Shown here: in pieces, positions 6,749 through 34,757 of the stretch | Layout of the letters: each line of letters begins with the position of its first letter | Position numbering within the stretch: the stretch's first letter is position 1 | Assembly: GCA_030695925.1 (NCBI GenBank) | Contig: JAUYOH010000139.1 | Location: forward strand, 15,142 to 79,141 | Reading direction: 5' to 3' | DNA length: 64,000 nucleotides | Origin: Candidatus Omnitrophota bacterium | Lineage (GTDB): Bacteria; Omnitrophota; Gorgyraeia; Pluralincolimonadales; Pluralincolimonadaceae | The notes under the pieces: model-generated | Database searches by the model: none | The model's input: the letters and a program-made list of their open reading frames with translations, nothing else | Told to the model about the DNA's origin: nothing | Position numbers and translations under genes: made by a program

Positions 6749-7558
6749 ATGGACAGAATAGGTCTCATCGCCGGAAAGAGCGAATACCCCCTCTTATTCG
6801 CCAAGGCCGCGAGGGCCAAGGGCCTTAAGATCGTCGCCGTAGGCATAGAGGGCGAAACGAAGCCCGAATTACAAACCCTCGTCGACAGATTTTTCTGGGT
6901 AAATCTCGGCGAGCTCTCCAAGGTTCTCGAGATATTTAAATCCGAAGGCATAGAAAAGGCCGTGATGGCCGGCGGCATAACCAAATCCCGCATATTCAAT
7001 GAAGCGTTAAAGATCGACGGACTGATGAAATCGATCCTCGTCAGGGCGCTGGATAAAAAAGATGATACGCTACTTTCGATGATCACCGCGACATTGAAAT
7101 CCGCCGGCGTTGAACTTCTTGATTCGACATTATTTCTCGAGGACCTTTTGCCCAAAGAGGGCCTCTTGACAAAATCGCGGCCCTCGAAAGAACAGGAAGA
7201 AGATGTAAAATTCGGCGCGAAGATTGCCAGGGAGGTTGCCGGCCTCGATATCGGACTTTCGATATTCGTCAAAGATAGAGCTGTCATCGCGGTTGAGGAT
7301 ATCGAAGGGACTGACGCCATGATAAGACGCGGCGGACGGCTTGCCGGGCCCGGCGGCGTTGTGATAAAAGCGGCCCGCCCAAAGCAAAATATGAGGTTCG
7401 ATATACCGGTCATCGGGCCCCAGACGATACGGTCAATGACCGAGGTAAAAGCTGCCTGTATCGCTATAGAGGCCAAGAAGACGCTGATAATAGATAAGGA
7501 AGAGGCGATTGCGCTCGCAGACAATAACAGTATCTCTATAATAGCGGTAACGATATGA
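6749..7558 (+). CDS. lpxI: LpxI-like (DUF1009) UDP-2,3-diacylglucosamine hydrolase candidate
   Basis: 269 aa. N-terminal IGLIAGKSEYPLLFAKAARAKGLKIVAVG and C-terminal RFDIPVIGPQTIRSMTEVKAACIAIEAKKTLIID resemble LpxI. Lies directly after lpxA. Confidence 0.6.
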   Translation: MDRIGLIAGKSEYPLLFAKAARAKGLKIVAVGIEGETKPELQTLVDRFFWVNLGELSKVLEIFKSEGIEKAVMAGGITKSRIFNEALKIDGLMKSILVRALDKKDDTLLSMITATLKSAGVELLDSTLFLEDLLPKEGLLTKSRPSKEQEEDVKFGAKIAREVAGLDIGLSIFVKDRAVIAVEDIEGTDAMIRRGGRLAGPGGVVIKAARPKQNMRFDIPVIGPQTIRSMTEVKAACIAIEAKKTLIIDKEEAIALADNNSISIIAVTI

Positions 7559-8235
7559 GCGGTATACTTGTATTAGGCATAGAGGACGAAGGCCTTAAGT
7601 GTGCCAAAGAGGCGCTGAAAAACGCCGATTACCACGTCTATTCCTGTGACGAGACCGACGTAAAAGCGGCCTATGAGGAAGCTTTAAAGAGGCGCCCCGA
7701 TGTGATAGCCCTCGACTTCACCTCTCTGAAGGACTTCGAAGCTCAGGTAGTATTCCGTACATTCAGAAAGGACAGATTCCTTAAAGAGACACCGGTCTTC
7801 GCGATATTGCCGGAAGATAACATGCGGCTGCTCGATAGCCTGCCCGGCCTCGGAGATTTTATCGTTACTCCTTTTAACGGCGCCGAGTTCGTCGCGCGCG
7901 TCAAAGCCCTCCTTAAAAAAGTGATACCTACCGACTCTGACGACCTCATGAAGATAGGCGACCTCGTAATAGACGTCAACAGATATGAAGTATTATTGAA
8001 CGGCAGTAAAGTTGAGCTTACCTTCAAAGAATATGAACTCCTGAAATTTCTCGCCAGTAATAAAGGACGCGTCTATTCCCGCGACCAATTGCTCGACAAG
8101 ATCTGGGGATATGACTATTACGGCGGTACCCGCACGGTGGATGTCCATATCCGCCGCCTGCGCAGCAAGATAGAAGACCGGAAACACACCTTTATCGAGA
8201 CCCTCCGCAACATCGGCTACAAATTTATCGCGTAA
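7555..8235 (+). CDS. OmpR/PhoB-family response regulator with atypical receiver domain
   Basis: 226 aa, ATGA overlap with the lpxI-like gene. C-terminal winged helix present (LTFKEYELLKFLASNKGRVYSRDQLLDKIWG...TVDVHIRRLRSKIE). Receiver keeps the Asp (VIALDF) but lacks the conserved Thr/Ser and the Lys of KPF (here IVTPF). Confidence 0.8.
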   Translation: MSGILVLGIEDEGLKCAKEALKNADYHVYSCDETDVKAAYEEALKRRPDVIALDFTSLKDFEAQVVFRTFRKDRFLKETPVFAILPEDNMRLLDSLPGLGDFIVTPFNGAEFVARVKALLKKVIPTDSDDLMKIGDLVIDVNRYEVLLNGSKVELTFKEYELLKFLASNKGRVYSRDQLLDKIWGYDYYGGTRTVDVHIRRLRSKIEDRKHTFIETLRNIGYKFIA

Positions 8236-8258: not shown

Positions 8259-8873
8259 CTAAATATCTACCGTTAACCTTTCTCCCACCTTCCCCACAAG
8301 TTCCTTACCGGGAGTTAAGGTCTTTTTCCCGGGTTGCCATTTTGCTGGACATACATTGGCGGGATTTTCACGGACATACTTAAAGGCCTTAAGTTTTCTT
8401 AAAAGCTCATCGGAGTTTCTGCCCACAGGAAAATAATTCACCTCGGAGGCGAGGAGTTTCCCGTCAGGATCGATAATGAATGTCCCCCTCAAGCTGAGGC
8501 CGGATTTCTCATCATAGACCCCAAAGGCCTTAGAAAGATTATGTGTCGGGTCTGCGGCCATGGGATATTTAATCTCAGAAAGCAATCTCTCCTGCTGCTG
8601 CCAGGCGTAATGTACGAAATGCGTGTCGGTGCTTACCGAGACTAACTCAACTCCGAGTTGTTTAATTTCAGAATATTTCTCTCCCGCGTCAGCTAATTCC
8701 GTCGGACAGACAAAGGTATAATCCGCGGGGTAGAAGAAAAGTATCAACCAGTTCCCTTTTTTAAAAATCTCAGAGAATTTTATCTTGCCGAAATCTTTCT
8801 TATCCGGAAAATAAACATCCGGTTCAAAATCGGGAACTTTTTCACCAATCTTCAAGACATTTAATTCTTCCAT
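8259..8873 (-). CDS. Peroxiredoxin (AhpC/Prx1-type 2-Cys)
   Basis: FVCPTE peroxidatic-Cys motif and a C-terminal VCPAKW resolving-Cys motif. Start placed at the ATG at 8873 (MEELNVLKIGEKVPDF), which has a GAAAGGTGG RBS. The track start at 8900 would overlap the upstream regulator. Confidence 0.85.
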   Translation of the reverse strand: MEELNVLKIGEKVPDFEPDVYFPDKKDFGKIKFSEIFKKGNWLILFFYPADYTFVCPTELADAGEKYSEIKQLGVELVSVSTDTHFVHYAWQQQERLLSEIKYPMAADPTHNLSKAFGVYDEKSGLSLRGTFIIDPDGKLLASEVNYFPVGRNSDELLRKLKAFKYVRENPANVCPAKWQPGKKTLTPGKELVGKVGERLTVDI

Positions 8874-8886
8874 TATCGCCACCTTT

Positions 8887-9303
8887 CTATTTATCCTCAT
8901 TCATATTTCTACTTTTGCATTCCCTGCAGTAACCATAAAAATCTATTCGATGGTAGTTAACTGCCATGCCACTTTTTTTACTTACCCTCATATCTAAATC
9001 CCTTAGCACCGGTTCATCCAGATCAAAGACCCTCTCGCATTTAAGGCAGAAAAAATGATAATGATTAGTAACCGTTCCATCGTAACGACAGCTGTGTTTC
9101 CCACAGGTTAATTCCAAAATCTCTCCCTGGTCTCTCAATAAGTTTAGATTGCGATATACTGTTCCAAAGCTAATATTAGGCAATTTCTTTCTTACTATCT
9201 TAAACAAGAGGTCCGCCCTGGGATGGGTCTTAAGTTTTTTTAACTCATCCAGAATTATTTTTCTTTGCGTACTCTTTCTTCTTAGAATCTTTTCTTTTAT
9301 CAT
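8887..9303 (-). CDS. Fur-family metalloregulator (PerR-like by context)
   Basis: 138 aa. wHTH N-domain (RKIILDELKK...HPRADLLFKIVRKKLPNISFGTVYRNL), an HYHFFC motif and two CxxC pairs (CLKC, CRECK). Sits immediately upstream of the peroxiredoxin. Confidence 0.7.
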   Translation of the reverse strand: MIKEKILRRKSTQRKIILDELKKLKTHPRADLLFKIVRKKLPNISFGTVYRNLNLLRDQGEILELTCGKHSCRYDGTVTNHYHFFCLKCERVFDLDEPVLRDLDMRVSKKSGMAVNYHRIDFYGYCRECKSRNMNEDK

Positions 9304-9359: not shown

Positions 9360-9399
9360 GCAAAAAATTTATACTGCGGAAGCCAGAAAAATTAATCGA

Positions 9400-9429
9400 G
9401 ATTTAACCTGCGCGTAATCTGGATTTAAC
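9400..9429. promoter_or_regulatory. Composite repeat GATTTAAC-N5-CGTAATC-N2-GATTTAAC (candidate nitrogen-regulator site)
   Basis: Exact 8-mer GATTTAAC at 9400-9407 and 9422-9429, flanking CGTAATC at 9413-9419. The same elements with the same N5/N2 spacings recur at 26387-26415 upstream of glnA. A TATACT -10-like hexamer lies at 9439-9444. Confidence 0.5.
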
Positions 9430-9480
9430 ATTCATCAGTATACTTATCAGCGTAAGAATGGAACAGGGGCTATCCTAGTA

Positions 9481-9657
9481 ATGAAGCAGAAAGAGCTAGA
9501 GAGCAAGTTCAGGTGCGCAAGGTGCGGTTATTTGACACAACGGCAGGCGCCGCCTAAGAGTTGCCCGGTCTGCAAATCAGGGGCAGACGCTTTTGACGAC
9601 ATTGGAGTCGACAGATCAGTGAAGATAAAGGAACTCTGTAATCCAAGGTTGATTTAA
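9481..9657 (+). CDS. Small rubredoxin-like zinc-ribbon protein (58 aa, absent from the ORF track)
   Basis: ATG at 9481, TAA at 9655-9657. Product is MKQKELESKFRCARCGYLTQRQAPPKSCPVCKSGADAFDD.... The CxxC-N15-CxxC pattern resembles the C-terminal rubredoxin-like domain of rubrerythrins. SD is weak. Confidence 0.4.
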   Translation: MKQKELESKFRCARCGYLTQRQAPPKSCPVCKSGADAFDDIGVDRSVKIKELCNPRLI

Positions 9658-9684: not shown

Positions 9685-9698
9685 ATGAAACATGAAAC
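9685..9698 (+). repeat. 7-bp tandem duplication ATGAAAC-ATGAAAC at the start of the barrel-protein gene
   Basis: AGGAGG at 9673-9678 is followed by two ATGs 7 nt apart, in different frames. The first (9685) opens an 18-codon out-of-frame ORF; the second (9692) opens the 259-aa ORF. Confidence 0.7.
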
Positions 9699-10471
9699 AT
9701 CTATTTTGTATACCGCTGTTTTTGTTTATTTTGTCCGTTGATTCATCGTGTTTTGCCACACCCTCGACTCATATCTGGGCGCCGTCAACCGATGCGCAGG
9801 CCTATGGCGTCATGCACATAACAGGTGATATGTATCTTCCAACAGAAAGAGATTCCGCCGGCAACAGGCCCGATACGATAACCAATGAAGGCTTGACCCT
9901 TGGTGTCTTACCTTTCGAGAAATTCAATGTAGAAGTTGGATTAGACCACAAGACAGGGCTCGGGGACCTCGATGATTACCCGATGTATTTTAACGCAAAA
10001 GGTGGGATACCTGAAGGGGCGTTCGGCGAATTCTTCCCGGCCTTGGCTGTCGGCGCGTATGATATCGGCACCAAGGAAGACCGAACCGACTTCAATATTA
10101 TCTACGGAAAGGCCGCGAAGACCTTCAGAGTCGGGGATTTAAACCTCGGGAGATTCTCGGCCGGCTATTTCAATGGCAATGACAAATTACTCTTGGATGA
10201 AGACGGCGATAAAGATAATGACGGTTTCTTCGGCGCGTGGGAGAGGACCATACCCGAGATATCCGACAAACTCTGGCTATGTGTTGAGTATCAGGGGACG
10301 AGAAGTTCTTACGGCGCATGGACTTTCGGCGGCTCATGGAAGTTCTCGGACAATATGTCAATGATTATAGGTTTCGACCGTTACAACAATAGAAATCTCG
10401 CTGATACAGTCACTATCCAGATGGATATAGATTTTGACGTCTTCAGTAAGATGTTCAAAAAAGGCAAATAG
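9692..10471 (+). CDS. Putative outer-membrane beta-barrel/porin-like protein (unknown family)
   Basis: 259 aa with a signal peptide (MKHLFCIPLFLFILSVDSSCFA). Alternating hydrophobic/aromatic strands (WTFGGSWKFS, MSMIIGFDRY, VTIQMDIDFDVF). Lies 15 nt upstream of amt. Confidence 0.45.
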   Translation: MKHLFCIPLFLFILSVDSSCFATPSTHIWAPSTDAQAYGVMHITGDMYLPTERDSAGNRPDTITNEGLTLGVLPFEKFNVEVGLDHKTGLGDLDDYPMYFNAKGGIPEGAFGEFFPALAVGAYDIGTKEDRTDFNIIYGKAAKTFRVGDLNLGRFSAGYFNGNDKLLLDEDGDKDNDGFFGAWERTIPEISDKLWLCVEYQGTRSSYGAWTFGGSWKFSDNMSMIIGFDRYNNRNLADTVTIQMDIDFDVFSKMFKKGK

Positions 10472-10504
10472 GATACGTGTAAACAGATGAAAGGAGATGG
10501 TAAT

Positions 10505-11842
10505 ATGAGAAAGTATTTGAAGGGTTCTCCGTTTTGGTTTTTCGCGGCTTTTCTGCTGTTTACGGTCATTGCCACTGTAGTGGCGGCCGAAGAGACCACC
10601 ACGGCGCCGAAGATTGATACAGGCGATACCGCGTGGCTTTTGACTTCATCGGCGCTCGTATTATTGATGACACCAGCTCTGGCCTTCTTCTACGGCGGCT
10701 TGGTACGTAAGAAGAACATTCTCTCGGTTTTGATGCAGTGTTTCATGGTCACATGCCTGATAACGATCCAGTGGGTATTGTTTGGCTACAGCCTTGCTTT
10801 TGGGCCGGATATCAAAGGTGTTATCGGAAGTTTAGCGTGGTTCGGTCTTAAAGGCGTGGGCCTCGACCCGAATCCCGCTTACGCTGCGACCGTGCCGCAT
10901 CAGGCGTTCATGATATTTCAGGCGATGTTCGCTATCATCACGCCCGCCCTGATCTTGGGAGCGTTCGCCGAAAGGATGAAATTTTCGACGTTCTGCGTCT
11001 TTTCGCTTTTATGGGCGACGCTCGTCTATGATCCGGTAGCGCATTGGGTCTGGGGCGTCGGCGGGTTCTTAAGGGCCGACGGAGCGCTTGATTTCGCCGG
11101 CGGTACCGTCGTACATATCAATGCCGGTGTGGCGGCCTTGGCGTGCGCTTTGGTATTAGGAAAACGTCGGGGGTACCCGGACAAGATATCTCCTCCGCAT
11201 AATCTGCCGTTTGCGGTATTGGGCGCGGGATTATTGTGGTTCGGCTGGTTCGGCTTTAACAGCGGAAGCGCTCTCGGCTCAGGTTCTCTGGCAACAAGCG
11301 CTTTTGTCGTTACCCATATAGCTGCCGCGGCAGCGGGCCTTACGTGGGCGCTGCTTGACTGGATCATTAATTCCCGTCCCACGGTCTTGGGTATCATCAC
11401 CGGCGCGGTCGCGGGGCTCGTCGCTATTACTCCCGCCTCGGGTTTTGTCAACCCGGTTGGCGCTATATGGATCGGCATCGGCGTATCGGTATTCTGCTAT
11501 ATAGCCGTCGCGATACTGAAGGTGAAATTCGGATACGATGATTCGCTCGACGCCTTCGGCGTTCATGGGATCGGCGGTATGTGGGGTGCCTTGGCGACAG
11601 GCCTCTGGGCGACAAAAGCGGTAAACTCAGCCGGCGCGAACGGATTATTCTACGGAAACCCGGCACAGCTCTTCATCCAGTTCAAGGCTGTCATTATAAC
11701 GGCAGCATATTCATTTGTCATGACTTTTGCGATATTAAAGGTCCTTGACGCCATAATGGGCGTGCGCGCCTCCGAGCAGGACGAACGCATCGGTCTGGAC
11801 CTCACACAGCACCGTGAGGCCGGTTATACGGTGCTGGAATAA
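10505..11842 (+). CDS. amt: Ammonium transporter (Amt/MEP family)
   Basis: Amt signatures present (DTAWLLTSSALVLLMTPALAFFYGG, DFAGGTVVHINAG, FGWFGFNSGSA, DDSLDAFGVHGIGG). Start set at the ATG at 10505, 8 nt after AAGGAG. The track start at 10487 is also possible. Confidence 0.9.
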   Translation: MRKYLKGSPFWFFAAFLLFTVIATVVAAEETTTAPKIDTGDTAWLLTSSALVLLMTPALAFFYGGLVRKKNILSVLMQCFMVTCLITIQWVLFGYSLAFGPDIKGVIGSLAWFGLKGVGLDPNPAYAATVPHQAFMIFQAMFAIITPALILGAFAERMKFSTFCVFSLLWATLVYDPVAHWVWGVGGFLRADGALDFAGGTVVHINAGVAALACALVLGKRRGYPDKISPPHNLPFAVLGAGLLWFGWFGFNSGSALGSGSLATSAFVVTHIAAAAAGLTWALLDWIINSRPTVLGIITGAVAGLVAITPASGFVNPVGAIWIGIGVSVFCYIAVAILKVKFGYDDSLDAFGVHGIGGMWGALATGLWATKAVNSAGANGLFYGNPAQLFIQFKAVIITAAYSFVMTFAILKVLDAIMGVRASEQDERIGLDLTQHREAGYTVLE

Positions 11843-11972: not shown

Positions 11973-12314
11973 ATGAAATACATTATCGCGATAATACAGC
12001 CGGACAGGCTTGATGAGGTATTAGGGAGACTGGAAGAGAAAGAGATACATCTGGTTACGGTCTCGAGTGTTATGGGCCGCGGCCGCCAGAAAGGCATTTC
12101 CGAAGTCTACAGGAGTCACAAGGAGGCCGGAAGCCTACTTAAGAAGGTAAAACTCGAGATCGCCGTTAATGAGGACTTTGCAAAACCGACTATCGAGGCG
12201 ATTATCGGCGGAGCAAGGACCGGTAACATAGGAGATGGAAAGATATTTATTATGGACCTGCAGGAATGCCTTAGAATAAGGACAGGCGAAAAGGGCGGCG
12301 AAGCGATCGGATAA
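11973..12314 (+). CDS. glnB: Nitrogen regulatory protein P-II (GlnB/GlnK family)
   Basis: 113 aa. T-loop GRGRQKGISEVYRS keeps the Tyr. C-terminal GDGKIFI motif present. Adjacent to amt. Confidence 0.9.
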   Translation: MKYIIAIIQPDRLDEVLGRLEEKEIHLVTVSSVMGRGRQKGISEVYRSHKEAGSLLKKVKLEIAVNEDFAKPTIEAIIGGARTGNIGDGKIFIMDLQECLRIRTGEKGGEAIG

Positions 12315-26332: not shown

Positions 26333-26378
26333 AATGACACTCAGTGCCGATGAATCGGCATTGAGTGTCATTTTTATT
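26333..26378 (+). terminator. Strong Rho-independent terminator after pyrG
   Basis: 18-bp stem AATGACACTCAGTGCCGA / TCGGCATTGAGTGTCATT (one G-U pair), TGAA loop, then TTTTATT. Confidence 0.85.
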
Positions 26379-26386
26379 GGGTAATG

Positions 26387-26415
26387 CGTAATATAGATTT
26401 AACAATAGCGTAATA
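26387..26415. promoter_or_regulatory. Composite repeat CGTAATA-N2-GATTTAAC-N5-CGTAATA upstream of glnA
   Basis: Same two elements and the same N2/N5 spacings as at 9400-9429. Extra GTAAT copies at 26381 and 26421. A -10-like CATAAT lies at 26436-26441, and a sigma-54-like TGGCAT-N7-AGCA at 26433-26448. Confidence 0.5.
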
Positions 26416-26470
26416 ATGCCGTAATTAAAGTATGGCATAATTTTAGCAAAAATAAAAGGAGGTTATATCC

Positions 26471-32342: not shown

Positions 32343-34757
32343 ATGGAATTCAAGATTACCGAAGACAACTTTAAATTAGGCGGACGTGATTTTTTTGTCT
32401 ATTCCGGCGAGATACATTATTTCAGGATAAGGCCCGAAAACTGGGCTATCCATCTGAAGAAAGCGAAAGCCGCCAACCTTAATACCGTAAGTACTTATAT
32501 CCCATGGGATTGGCACGAGTATGAGGAAGGCAGGTTTGATTTTACCGGCCAGACAAATCCGCAGAGAAATCTACTCGGCTTCATAGAGTTATGCAAGAAA
32601 AACGGCCTTTACCTGATCGTCAAACCCGGGCCTTACATCCTCGCCGAATATATGGACCACGGAATTCCTCAGTGGTTGCTATCTTCCCATCCCGAGATAC
32701 TCTCTCTAAATAAAGACGGCAAACCGTTCAATCATGCGCGCGTGGCCCTGCTTCATCCGACATATCTAAAGTACGCCAAACTCTGGTATGACAGGATAAT
32801 TGAGATAATCAGAGAAAATTCGGTTACTAAGACTGGCGGCATCATAATCTCGATGCAGGTATGTAACGAGATAGGCGTCTTTACATGGCTTGATAAAGAA
32901 GCGGATTATAATCCCGTCGCGCTCGAGCACTACAAGAAATTTCTGGCGGATAAATACAAGAAGATAACGCGCCTTAACGCCTTGTATAAGACCAAGTATA
33001 GGGGTTTCGGTTCGGTCCTTCCTCCTTCCGGGAATCCGTCAAGGCTTCCGGAATTGGCAGCCGACCTAGATTGGCACTTGTTCTGGCGCAGTTATTATGC
33101 CGCTTATCTGGAATATCTTATGAAAGAGCTGATAAAGAGAAAAATCCGAGTTCCCTTTACGCATAATTTGCCCGGGTGGGTCCTTGGGCGCGCGGTCGAG
33201 TATCCTTTGAACATAACGATGTATCAGGATGTGGCCAAGTTATACCCGAAGATCTTCTTGACCGTCGATCACATACCGGAAAATGTCTCTTATAGGAATT
33301 TCCATGATGTCGCTATAATCCAACAGATAACCAGGGCCATACAGGGCGGCAAGGGACCGATATTTGTCGCGGAGATGCAGGCAGGTACAAGAGAGCACAA
33401 TGTGGTCATTTATCCGGATGAGTTAGAGTTGTTCTATAAGGCATCCCTCGCGTACGGAGCCGCGGGGATGAATTTCTATATGTTCTCACAGGGGATGAAT
33501 CCGAAAGGGAAGTCCGCGGTAGGGCCGACTTTCTACTGGCAGGCGCCTCTTGATTATGACGGAAAAGAAACCCCTCTCTATCCGGTGATAAGGCGTTTCG
33601 GAAAAATAACTTCGAATTTTGGAAATCTTCTCGCGAAAGCCAAGCCCGATTCGAAAGTAGCGCTTTTATTCTATAAGCCCTATTATTATACGGAGTTGAC
33701 GCACTCATATGACTTAAAGAAGATGGGATTAGGCTATAATCCCAAGGGCATAAGGGACGGTATATTTTTCGAAGGAATCGCCAAGGTCCTTAAGATGTTA
33801 AATTGCGATTACGACATTCTTGATTTGGAATTGTGTAAAACAAATGACCTCTCGAAGTATAAACAGGTATGGGTGGTCGCGTTGGAATACATGGACGCAG
33901 ATTCCCAAAAACTTATATCCCAATATGTGTTAAGCGGCGGACATCTTGTGATGCTGCCGCGCGTGCCGCAATACGACCTTTCCTTAAAGCCGTGCGATAT
34001 CCTCAAGGAATCACTTAAATTAGGCGAGATAAAAGAGGTCTCGCCGCGCGTGCCGACAATCGAGTTTATGGATATAAGGGAGATATCGGTCGTAAATCCG
34101 GTCCATGTCTTTGATGAAGCGAACGCTCAGCCCGTAGCCCTTCTGGCAAACGGAAGCGCATGCGGCATAGTCAAGCATTTCGGGATTGGGTGGGCCCTTC
34201 TTATGGGCACCGCATTCGGTTATTCTATAGAGGAGAATATCGAGGCCTATTCCCGCATTCTCAAGATGGACGATATCCGGGGAAGCGCGGCATCCTCAAA
34301 CAAAAGATTCATCGTCCAGGAATTCTTTGGCGACGGATATGCCTTTGTGTTTGTAGCGAATTATTATAGGACTACCGAATCCGGTTATGTAACATTTGTC
34401 AATCCCCTGACCAAAGTCGAGACGAAAATACCGCATGCTTCGGAGCTGACCCTGCCGGGTTTGAGCGGGATTTTGATTCCCGTGGCCGTTCCCATACAAG
34501 GAAGCAGCGCCAAGATAATGTTCTCCACATCACAGGTCATCAGCGCTTTTGAGAGGAGCGGTTCGATATATATGGAGTTGCACGGGTATTCCAATTCGGC
34601 GGCAGAAGTGGCGGTTGCCCTGAAGAATAAGCCGCGGCAGGCATTTGTCGACGGCAAAAAAGCGGAATTTTCATTTAAAGGCGGCGAGGCCGTGATATCT
34701 TTCAGGCATAGCGACGAAGGTTCGGTGCTTCTTAAGCTGAATCTGAGGGAAAGATGA
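32343..34757 (+). CDS. GH35-family beta-galactosidase-like glycoside hydrolase
   Basis: 804 aa. GEIHYFRIRPENWAIHLKKAKAANLNTVSTYIPWDWHEYEEGRFDF...LYLIVKPGPYILAEY and MQVCNEIG (acid/base NE) match GH35 signatures. Confidence 0.75.
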   Translation: MEFKITEDNFKLGGRDFFVYSGEIHYFRIRPENWAIHLKKAKAANLNTVSTYIPWDWHEYEEGRFDFTGQTNPQRNLLGFIELCKKNGLYLIVKPGPYILAEYMDHGIPQWLLSSHPEILSLNKDGKPFNHARVALLHPTYLKYAKLWYDRIIEIIRENSVTKTGGIIISMQVCNEIGVFTWLDKEADYNPVALEHYKKFLADKYKKITRLNALYKTKYRGFGSVLPPSGNPSRLPELAADLDWHLFWRSYYAAYLEYLMKELIKRKIRVPFTHNLPGWVLGRAVEYPLNITMYQDVAKLYPKIFLTVDHIPENVSYRNFHDVAIIQQITRAIQGGKGPIFVAEMQAGTREHNVVIYPDELELFYKASLAYGAAGMNFYMFSQGMNPKGKSAVGPTFYWQAPLDYDGKETPLYPVIRRFGKITSNFGNLLAKAKPDSKVALLFYKPYYYTELTHSYDLKKMGLGYNPKGIRDGIFFEGIAKVLKMLNCDYDILDLELCKTNDLSKYKQVWVVALEYMDADSQKLISQYVLSGGHLVMLPRVPQYDLSLKPCDILKESLKLGEIKEVSPRVPTIEFMDIREISVVNPVHVFDEANAQPVALLANGSACGIVKHFGIGWALLMGTAFGYSIEENIEAYSRILKMDDIRGSAASSNKRFIVQEFFGDGYAFVFVANYYRTTESGYVTFVNPLTKVETKIPHASELTLPGLSGILIPVAVPIQGSSAKIMFSTSQVISAFERSGSIYMELHGYSNSAAEVAVALKNKPRQAFVDGKKAEFSFKGGEAVISFRHSDEGSVLLKLNLRER

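Follow-up and report, generated by a model that had tools for sequence, protein, structure and literature searches.

GlnR-box-like arrays at the amt and glnA promoters of an Omnitrophota bacterium, and the OmpR-type candidate regulator encoded beside them

The stretch analysed here (the window, 64,000 nucleotides (nt) from a Candidatus Omnitrophota bacterium) carries two nitrogen-assimilation units: 1) an operon that begins with a gene for a small rubredoxin-like protein (rbx58) and continues with genes for a porin-like protein, the ammonium transporter Amt and the P-II protein GlnB; 2) the glutamine synthetase gene glnA. Downstream of glnB the first unit is followed by HTH_8-gltBD-carAB-pyrG, up to a strong terminator (26333-26372). 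Each unit is preceded by an array of short direct repeats placed just upstream of a -10 hexamer, namely site 1 at the amt operon and site 2 between the pyrG terminator and glnA. About 1.2 kb upstream of site 1 lies a gene for an orphan regulator of the OmpR/PhoB type, whose start codon overlaps the stop codon of lpxI (ATGA, 7555-7558). In this report we examine the arrays, their distribution across genomes and their relationship to this regulator; the coordinates of all features are collected in Table 1.

The original prediction had read the two sites as GATTTAAC-ctgcg-CGTAATC-tg-GATTTAAC (9400-9429) and CGTAATA-ta-GATTTAAC-aatag-CGTAATA (26387-26415), with TATACT and CATAAT as the respective -10-like hexamers, and a fresh reading of the sequence confirmed all these letters in place. 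Both sites nevertheless proved to be longer than described: each consists of four GTAAC-like hexamers in one orientation and in an exact 11-bp register, the last hexamer of site 2 having been missed and the distal hexamer of site 1 (ATTAAT) being a weak one. Thus read, both promoters carry TTAAC/GTAAT units with 6-nt spacers. At the glnA promoter of the window CGTAAT stands where relatives carry TTTAAC, at the same N10 distance from the -10 hexamer (TATACT or TACACT in the relatives), and given that TTTAAC and CGTAAT swap at the same position of the register, sequence comparison identifies them as variants of one half-site. The 22-bp repeating unit originally described is therefore real as a register, but what repeats is a GTAAC-like half-site, directly and every 11 bp, with the 22-bp period reflecting the alternation of its two variants. 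A plus-strand sigma-70 scan found no -35-like hexamer 16-18 nt upstream of TATACT at the amt promoter and no -35/-10 pair at the glnA promoter. If the -10 hexamer is taken as positions -12 to -7, with the start site inferred accordingly, the amt array extends from about -59 to -22.

Three other readings of the element were rejected. An inverted-repeat interpretation (GATT-N12-AATC or AATC-N2-GATT) conflicts with the conserved columns, which are co-oriented nTAAy cores, and with the interchange of TTTAAC and CGTAAT in register. An NtcA-type GTA-N8-TAC site does not fit, as the element is no palindrome and has TTA in its second half. Finally, an RNA element is not indicated, as no Rfam family matched anywhere in the window and the array sits upstream of the -10 hexamer.

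Table 1. Positions of the arrays, promoter hexamers and genes discussed in the text (window coordinates unless a contig is named; aa, amino acids; HTH, helix-turn-helix).
Feature	Position	Strand	Remarks
Candidate binder, 226-aa orphan OmpR/PhoB-type regulator, degenerate receiver, GlnR-like	7555..8235	+	Pfam Trans_reg_C, PDB matches
perR-like (Fur-family) gene and ahpC	8259-9303	-	between the regulator and site 1, divergent from the amt operon
GlnR-box-like array, amt-operon promoter (site 1)	9391..9429	+	ATTAAT 9391-9396, TTTAAC 9402-9407, CGTAAT 9413-9418, TTTAAC 9424-9429
-10 hexamer TATACT, amt promoter	9439-9444	+	9 nt past the last hexamer of site 1
Rubredoxin-like zinc-ribbon open reading frame, 58 aa (rbx58)	9481-9657	+	CxxC...CxxC; Pfam RUBY_RBDX; first gene after site 1
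Porin-like 259-aa protein, signal peptide	9692-10471	+	between rbx58 and amt
amt	10487-11842	+	Pfam
glnB/P-II	11973-12314	+	Pfam
Stand-alone Fis/NtrC-type HTH (HTH_8), 72 aa	12482-12700	+	Pfam; overlaps gltB start
GlnR-box-like array, glnA promoter (site 2)	26387..26425	+	CGTAAT 26387-26392, TTTAAC 26398-26403, CGTAAT 26409-26414, CGTAAT 26420-26425
Presumed -10 hexamer CATAAT, glnA promoter	26436-26441	+	10 nt past the last hexamer of site 2
glnA, type I glutamine synthetase, 499 aa	26471..27970	+	Pfam; NCBIfam TIGR00653, 677 bits
Third strong array, TTTAAC-TTTAAC-CGTAAT-TTTAGA	host genome, C28:47793-47831 (L001 7794-7832)		intergenic; composite pattern and unit matrix

The abundance of the 8-mer, which had been put forward as too high for chance, is not informative by itself: GATTTAAC occurs four times in the window against 2.97 expected, a count reached by 33 of 100 shuffles, and CGTAATM occurs 26 times against 19 expected. 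We accordingly dropped the 8-mer count as evidence and turned to the composite pattern, TTTAAC-N5-CGTAAT. This has just three copies in the whole host genome (a 1.70-Mb metagenome-assembled genome with 7.4% estimated contamination), all of them intergenic, with an estimated chance expectation of about 0.2; the copies are site 1, site 2 and a locus on another contig (C28). A rigid 32-nt matrix that included the genome's own sites was circular, and was replaced by a half-site (unit) matrix built exclusively from other genomes, with the reversed genome as the null. With this matrix the three-unit arrays of the three sites score 34.2, 29.1 and 21.4, the highest being site 1 (the genome-wide top) and the lowest the glnA site, while the maximum in the reversed genome is 14.4. 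Further candidates from the matrices (C30:36741, C75:5075, C142:8376, C147:28446 and window position 33813) were discarded, being either coding or without promoter context and scoring at the level of the null. The composite motif is thus far above chance, and the recurrence at similar density in coding or unrelated intergenic DNA that had been named as a possible refutation was not seen. Despite the estimated contamination of the assembly, the regulator gene and both window sites share one contig.

We then searched the 17 sampled genomes of the same family with a 30-nt pattern, allowing up to three mismatches and using the reversed pattern as control. This recovered 28 matches in 15 of the 17 genomes as against none in the control, and every match outside the host genome precedes rbx58-amt, a second amt or glnA. 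A 16th genome (G002) displays a variant box, TAAC-N6-TTAAT-N6-TTAAC-N6-GTAAC-N9-TATAAT, before amt. An alignment including eight Omnitrophota relatives provides a phylogenetic footprint in which the hexamers and the -10 stay constant amid 5-nt spacers and flanks that vary freely; every aligned amt site reads TATACT, and the glnA promoters of the relatives read GATTTAAC-N5-CGTAATA-N2-GATTTAAC-N10-TATACT. In this family the box takes the TTTAAC/CGTAAT form, with only three units strongly conserved. The element, its conservation upstream of orthologous amt and glnA genes and its confinement to the promoters of nitrogen genes are direct observations, and they lend comparative support to the view that it is an operator or activator site of a nitrogen regulator common to the amt operon and glnA. 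The second refutation put forward in advance, a lack of conservation at orthologous nitrogen genes, is not borne out either. An exact 17-mer match in one relative (L008/G012) lies within a coding frame and was set aside as a chance occurrence. As a separate observation, G002 contains near-identical copies of TTTATCCCGTTAGAAATNAATTTCTAAC at C9:8176-8213 and C96:25532-25569, which constitute a repeat.

The genome has two OmpR-family (Trans_reg_C) proteins and no more: a canonical PhoB (C28:19508-20194) situated beside PhoR and pstSCA, and the protein encoded upstream of site 1. The C-terminal region of the latter matches Pfam Trans_reg_C at E 7e-29, and no receiver-domain model, the canonical Response_reg included, matched it at E <= 0.001. 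In a search of the PDB its best solved relatives were 8hig, 8hih and 8hml, of which 8HIH is Mycobacterium tuberculosis GlnR in a transcription activation complex and 8HML the Saccharopolyspora erythraea GlnR DNA-binding domain on DNA (PMC10235972); the structure library describes 8HIG as the S. erythraea GlnR DNA-binding domain with DNA. The scores were 129.7 bits for 8hig and 116 bits for the 8hml DNA-binding domain versus 109 for RegX3 and 91 for the next DNA-binding domain (VicR). The genome's PhoB, run as a control, matched RegX3 at 181 bits with GlnR outside its top 60. The original prediction had named this atypical OmpR protein as a candidate regulator while stating that the window lacks a GlnR homologue; the similarity to GlnR, together with the gene-site linkage presented below, supports the former, whereas the latter is wrong as far as the actinobacterial, OmpR-type GlnR is concerned.

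Sequence alignment showed that the base-contacting residues of S. erythraea GlnR (R186, V190, R193 and R194) are conserved in the window protein, which moreover has in common with actinobacterial GlnR the motifs WGYD(Y/F)(Y/F)GG and RN(I/V)GYKF and a 2-residue deletion in the alpha4 region. Its receiver retains the acceptor aspartate (in VIALD), while the switch threonine is replaced by leucine, the lysine by threonine, and the acidic pair fails to align. The same receiver losses are found in actinobacterial GlnR, whereas the PhoB of this genome retains all the residues of the phosphorylation pocket. An AlphaFold model predicts a two-domain OmpR fold (mean predicted local distance difference test score 87), and the DNA-binding domain is 52-53% identical to that of GlnR in the Foldseek comparison. 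In a tree of full-length sequences a group of actinobacterial GlnR, Omnitrophota and Dehalococcoidia proteins is split from six other OmpR-family proteins, a small outgroup, with support 100/98, a value that the shared degenerate receivers could inflate. The actinobacterial branch of this tree is long. In M. tuberculosis GlnR the residues reported to contact the beta flap of RNA polymerase are Y160, H164, R167, V168, F169 and Q173 (PMC10235972); their counterparts in the window protein are F, N, R, V, Y and Q. No histidine kinase adjoins the regulator gene in the window or in eight relatives, where lpxI is found upstream and perR-ahpC or the amt operon downstream; the same holds for the gene neighborhoods in other Omnitrophota families, a scope that leaves room for a distant kinase. 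Public annotation labels the Omnitrophota and Dehalococcoidia homologues 'response regulator transcription factor' or 'PhoP'. In Dehalococcoidia the position of the acceptor aspartate is variable (D, E or A in three aligned examples).

To establish how gene and site are associated we examined the conserved gene-neighborhoods. The gene order lpxC/fabZ-lpxA-lpxI-regulator is found in the eight closest Omnitrophota loci, and in all seven of the relatives' loci that extend far enough the motif occurs about 20-350 bp past the regulator gene, followed by rbx58-porin-amt-glnB; it recurs before glnA-nadE where the loci reach that far. The regulator is present in 16 of the 17 family genomes, and the motif, too, is missing from the remaining one, which is 85% complete. 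Among 401 sampled Omnitrophota genomes 27 encode a homologue at E <= 1e-45. The 21 Omnitrophota homologues from other families adjoin lpxA-lpxI or nadE, in many cases followed by amt or glnA and in several with recognizable arrays. The order lpxA-lpxI-regulator is itself kept across several Omnitrophota families (loci L129-L142).

A more distant set of homologues, comprising 72 loci at 41-61% identity and mostly from Dehalococcoidia, repeats this association. Within the fetched flanks amt was found at 54, glnA at 49 and glnB at 44 of these loci, and in the 60 that could be measured the first amt or glnA lies at most 1.2 kb downstream of the regulator. Arrays of at least three units occupy 34 of the 60 intervening spacers, where the remainder of the loci predicts 0.12. 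The 40 four-unit arrays are dominated, position by position, by GTAAC (35), TTAAC (36), GTAAT (30) and GAAAC/GTAAC, and 32 of the 40 have TAnnnT exactly 10 nt past the array; units 2 and 3 (TTAAC and GTAAT) are the very words of the Omnitrophota motif. The homology of the regulators and the linkage of gene and site in both phyla are likewise observed directly. Upstream of the regulator, at a distance of about 1 kb, most of the distant loci L019-L090 (41 of 72) have a gltB-like gene.

These features can be compared with the published actinobacterial system. The consensus half-site of GlnR is GTAAC, and the GlnR box combines an a site (gTnAc) and a b site (GaAAc) with 6-nt spacers upstream of amtB and glnA; in the M. 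tuberculosis activation complex, assembled on a scaffold from -64 to +13, four protomers are arranged head to tail, with the proximal one occupying the b2 site, downstream of a -35 that is non-optimal, where it contacts the beta flap and sigma region 4, and the RNA polymerase alpha subunit's C-terminal domain on the distal site (PMC10235972). The Omnitrophota system resembles actinobacterial GlnR in its winged-helix OmpR-type DNA-binding domain, closest to GlnR among solved structures, in having no adjacent kinase, and in a receiver that keeps the aspartate without the threonine and lysine of the phospho-switch. Its boxes likewise consist of one-mismatch variants of GTAAC with the 11-bp register and the 22-bp alternation, in the actinobacterial orientation as given by the printed consensus; up to four sites extend from about -60 to -22 (counted from the presumed start) around a missing -35 and before a good -10, and the targets are amt-glnB and glnA. 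It differs from the actinobacterial system in its host, an omnitrophote with close relatives in Dehalococcoidia, in an N-terminal domain that is marginally recognizable as GlnR_1st, in the translational coupling of the gene to the lipid A genes lpxA-lpxI, in the use of the TTTAAC/CGTAAT variant of the box, and in the very small size of the regulon found (two to three promoters).

Taken together, we propose that the motif is very probably the Omnitrophota version of the actinobacterial GlnR box, that is, a series of docking sites for the GlnR-like protein encoded at 7555-8235, through which amt and glnA would be activated. As the amt array at -59 to -22 matches the published geometry of GlnR, stacking of protomers and activation appear to be the best-supported explanation. 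Protomers of this orphan and presumably phosphorylation-independent regulator would bind the half-sites head to tail, the promoter-proximal one lying between the -35 and -10 positions, and three to four such stacked protomers might recruit or stabilize sigma-70-type RNA polymerase at a promoter that has a good -10 and no -35. Ammonium uptake (rbx58-porin-amt-glnB) and glutamine synthesis (glnA) would thereby be switched on together, possibly with a third unit in this genome that encodes a homocitrate-synthase-like protein and a 2-oxoacid:acceptor oxidoreductase. We infer the physical binding, the activation as opposed to repression, the stoichiometry and the nitrogen signal from these comparisons.

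Several observations weigh against this interpretation. At the protein level, the recognition helix is conserved in PhoB-type proteins as well, so that the contact residues do not discriminate; the top Foldseek matches are all OmpR-family proteins and do not single out GlnR; and Pfam GlnR_1st (PF21695, cut-off 27) scores the window protein at just 12 bits (E 0.2), although an orthologue (P0027) reaches 27.5 bits and S. erythraea GlnR 146 bits. A tree restricted to the DNA-binding domain, with the six proteins as outgroup, recovers the same split but with weak support (69/36). At the DNA level, a sigma-54-like -24/-12 element, TGGCAT-N5-TAGCA (26433-26448), overlaps the presumed -10 of glnA, and the genome encodes sigma-54 (two Sigma54_DBD matches); this element is not conserved in the relatives, and the pattern occurs five times in the genome versus three in the control, no more than background. 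The third array has no -10 hexamer at the N9-10 distance, and tandem 11-bp direct repeats 10 nt before a -10 also describe the layout of a Pho box. Lastly, since amt has a weak distal hexamer and most of the relatives' glnA promoters have none, occupancy may be by three protomers rather than four.

Of the alternatives, the one that survives best retains the GlnR-like protein as binder and makes it a repressor, which, with nitrogen in ample supply, would block the -35/spacer region. Actinobacterial GlnR does repress some of its targets, the array covers a region that RNA polymerase must contact, and the third site lacks a correctly spaced -10. We consider repression unlikely, as the absence of a -35-like hexamer combined with a -10 conserved at a fixed N9-10 distance is a signature of activator-dependent promoters, the layout agrees with the GlnR activation complex on amtB, and an operator serving repression need not hold such rigid spacing across phyla.

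A second alternative is that the arrays are bound by PhoB, or by both OmpR-family proteins in a form of phosphate-nitrogen cross-talk. PhoB/PhoP proteins share with the GlnR-like protein the fold, the head-to-tail binding and the use of co-oriented 11-bp repeats that end about 10 nt before the -10 and replace the -35, and their recognition helix is similar. The genome furnishes an internal control for this possibility in the form of a Pho-box-like array of ATTTTACA every 11 bp (C28:22333-22375) upstream of pstSCA. When scored with the unit matrix it came out just above the null, a point in favor of PhoB; we rejected it as a regulon site because it is a Pho box (TTTTACA repeat) before pstS. PhoB adjoins PhoR and a pstSCA operon with a distinct repeat of its own, forming a PhoB-PhoR-pstS unit elsewhere in the genome, whereas the protein at 7555-8235 has neither a canonical receiver nor an adjacent kinase. 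Furthermore, it is the GlnR-like gene that the motif accompanies as a neighbor in both Omnitrophota and Dehalococcoidia, and all its targets are nitrogen rather than phosphate genes. Binding by PhoB therefore strikes us as distinctly improbable.

The third alternative, also raised by the original prediction, takes the stand-alone Fis-type HTH protein, or some other factor, as the binder and the OmpR-type protein as a bystander. The HTH gene lies inside the nitrogen cluster, overlapping the gltB start, and its domain is the DNA-binding module of NtrC. It is, however, detectable in only five of the 17 family genomes and in none of the eight high-quality ones, while the motif is present in 15-16 of the 17, and so it can hardly be the binder. 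The protein is also absent from clusters that carry both sites (L013 and L015-L017), dimeric Fis/NtrC-type HTHs bind inverted repeats instead of four co-oriented half-sites, and the linkage of gene and site that marks the OmpR-type protein is not seen for any other factor. We regard this alternative as very remote. The last alternative, a fortuitous resemblance or else an operator for PerR/Fur belonging to the divergent perR-ahpC pair, draws on the unremarkable count of the 8-mer alone and on the position of site 1 in an intergenic region common to perR, and can be dismissed, as the composite statistics and the reversed control exclude chance, the motif is conserved at glnA and, in relatives whose amt promoters have no perR-ahpC beside them, at amt, and perR possesses a near-consensus promoter of its own (TTGACA-16-TATTAT, 9359-9332) outside the array.

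Other nitrogen regulators, namely NtrC, NtcA, the MerR-type GlnR/TnrA and AmtR, act on the same target genes (amt, glnB/K, glnA and gltBD). NtrC is a sigma-54 enhancer-binding protein, NtcA a member of the CRP family recognizing GTA-N8-TAC, and the Firmicutes MerR-type GlnR/TnrA recognize TGTNA-N7-TNACA; these proteins and AmtR bind as dimers to inverted repeats. The present element, in contrast, is a co-oriented four-fold repeat associated with a different protein family, and no NtrC, NtcA, MerR-type GlnR/TnrA or AmtR regulator is encoded next to it.

On a wider scale, the GlnR-like regulators and their arrays might represent an old circuit that spans Actinomycetota, Chloroflexota (Dehalococcoidia) and a class-level clade of Omnitrophota, in which a pseudo-receiver activator acts on a four-unit GTAAC array that replaces the -35, a proposition for and against which we see about equal grounds. 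Position-specific variants are retained (TTAAC in unit 2, GTAAT in unit 3 and N10 to the -10), which on this view would point to the same geometry of RNA polymerase contacts. In Omnitrophota the regulator would be hard-wired to the lipid A operon (lpxA-lpxI-glnR-like), and its degenerate receiver would sense nitrogen status by a route new to the family, for example through a metabolite such as 2-oxoglutarate or contact with P-II. The public literature describes GlnR as the actinobacterial master regulator of nitrogen (PMC10235972). Our literature search on GlnR with Chloroflexi, Dehalococcoides or Omnitrophota retrieved nothing relevant, and no report of GlnR outside Actinobacteria was found; hence what seems to be new here is the apparent operation of a known regulator family and its box in new phyla. 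Two large and mostly uncultured groups thereby gain a regulon model of nitrogen assimilation that can be tested directly, their nitrogen-responsive promoters become predictable from metagenome sequence, and natural variants of protein and box become available for the study of RNA polymerase activation by stacked OmpR-family protomers. The automatic 'PhoP' labels, by which these genes would be misassigned to phosphate control, are corrected as well.

The third strong array of the host genome lies upstream of a gene for a homocitrate/isopropylmalate-synthase-like protein with a Cache-like C-terminal domain, which is followed by one for the alpha subunit of a 2-oxoacid:acceptor oxidoreductase; these genes plausibly serve the supply of 2-oxoglutarate. 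A near-consensus sigma-70 promoter (TTGCCA-17-TATAAT) is located about 40 bp downstream of this array. As a -10 at the usual distance is missing and the relatives yielded no such array, we hold its membership in the regulon to be uncertain.

With regard to the neighboring genes, rbx58 is retained directly after the array in all relatives within the family (60-84% identity), and the order rbx58-porin-amt-glnB is conserved in the relatives. The 259-aa porin-like protein, which matches no Pfam or NCBIfam family, is 81-88% identical in them; possibly it serves as an outer-membrane channel reserved for ammonium. The perR-ahpC pair intervenes between the regulator and the motif only in the host genome and in one relative (L012), and its presence between regulator and operator looks like an insertion.

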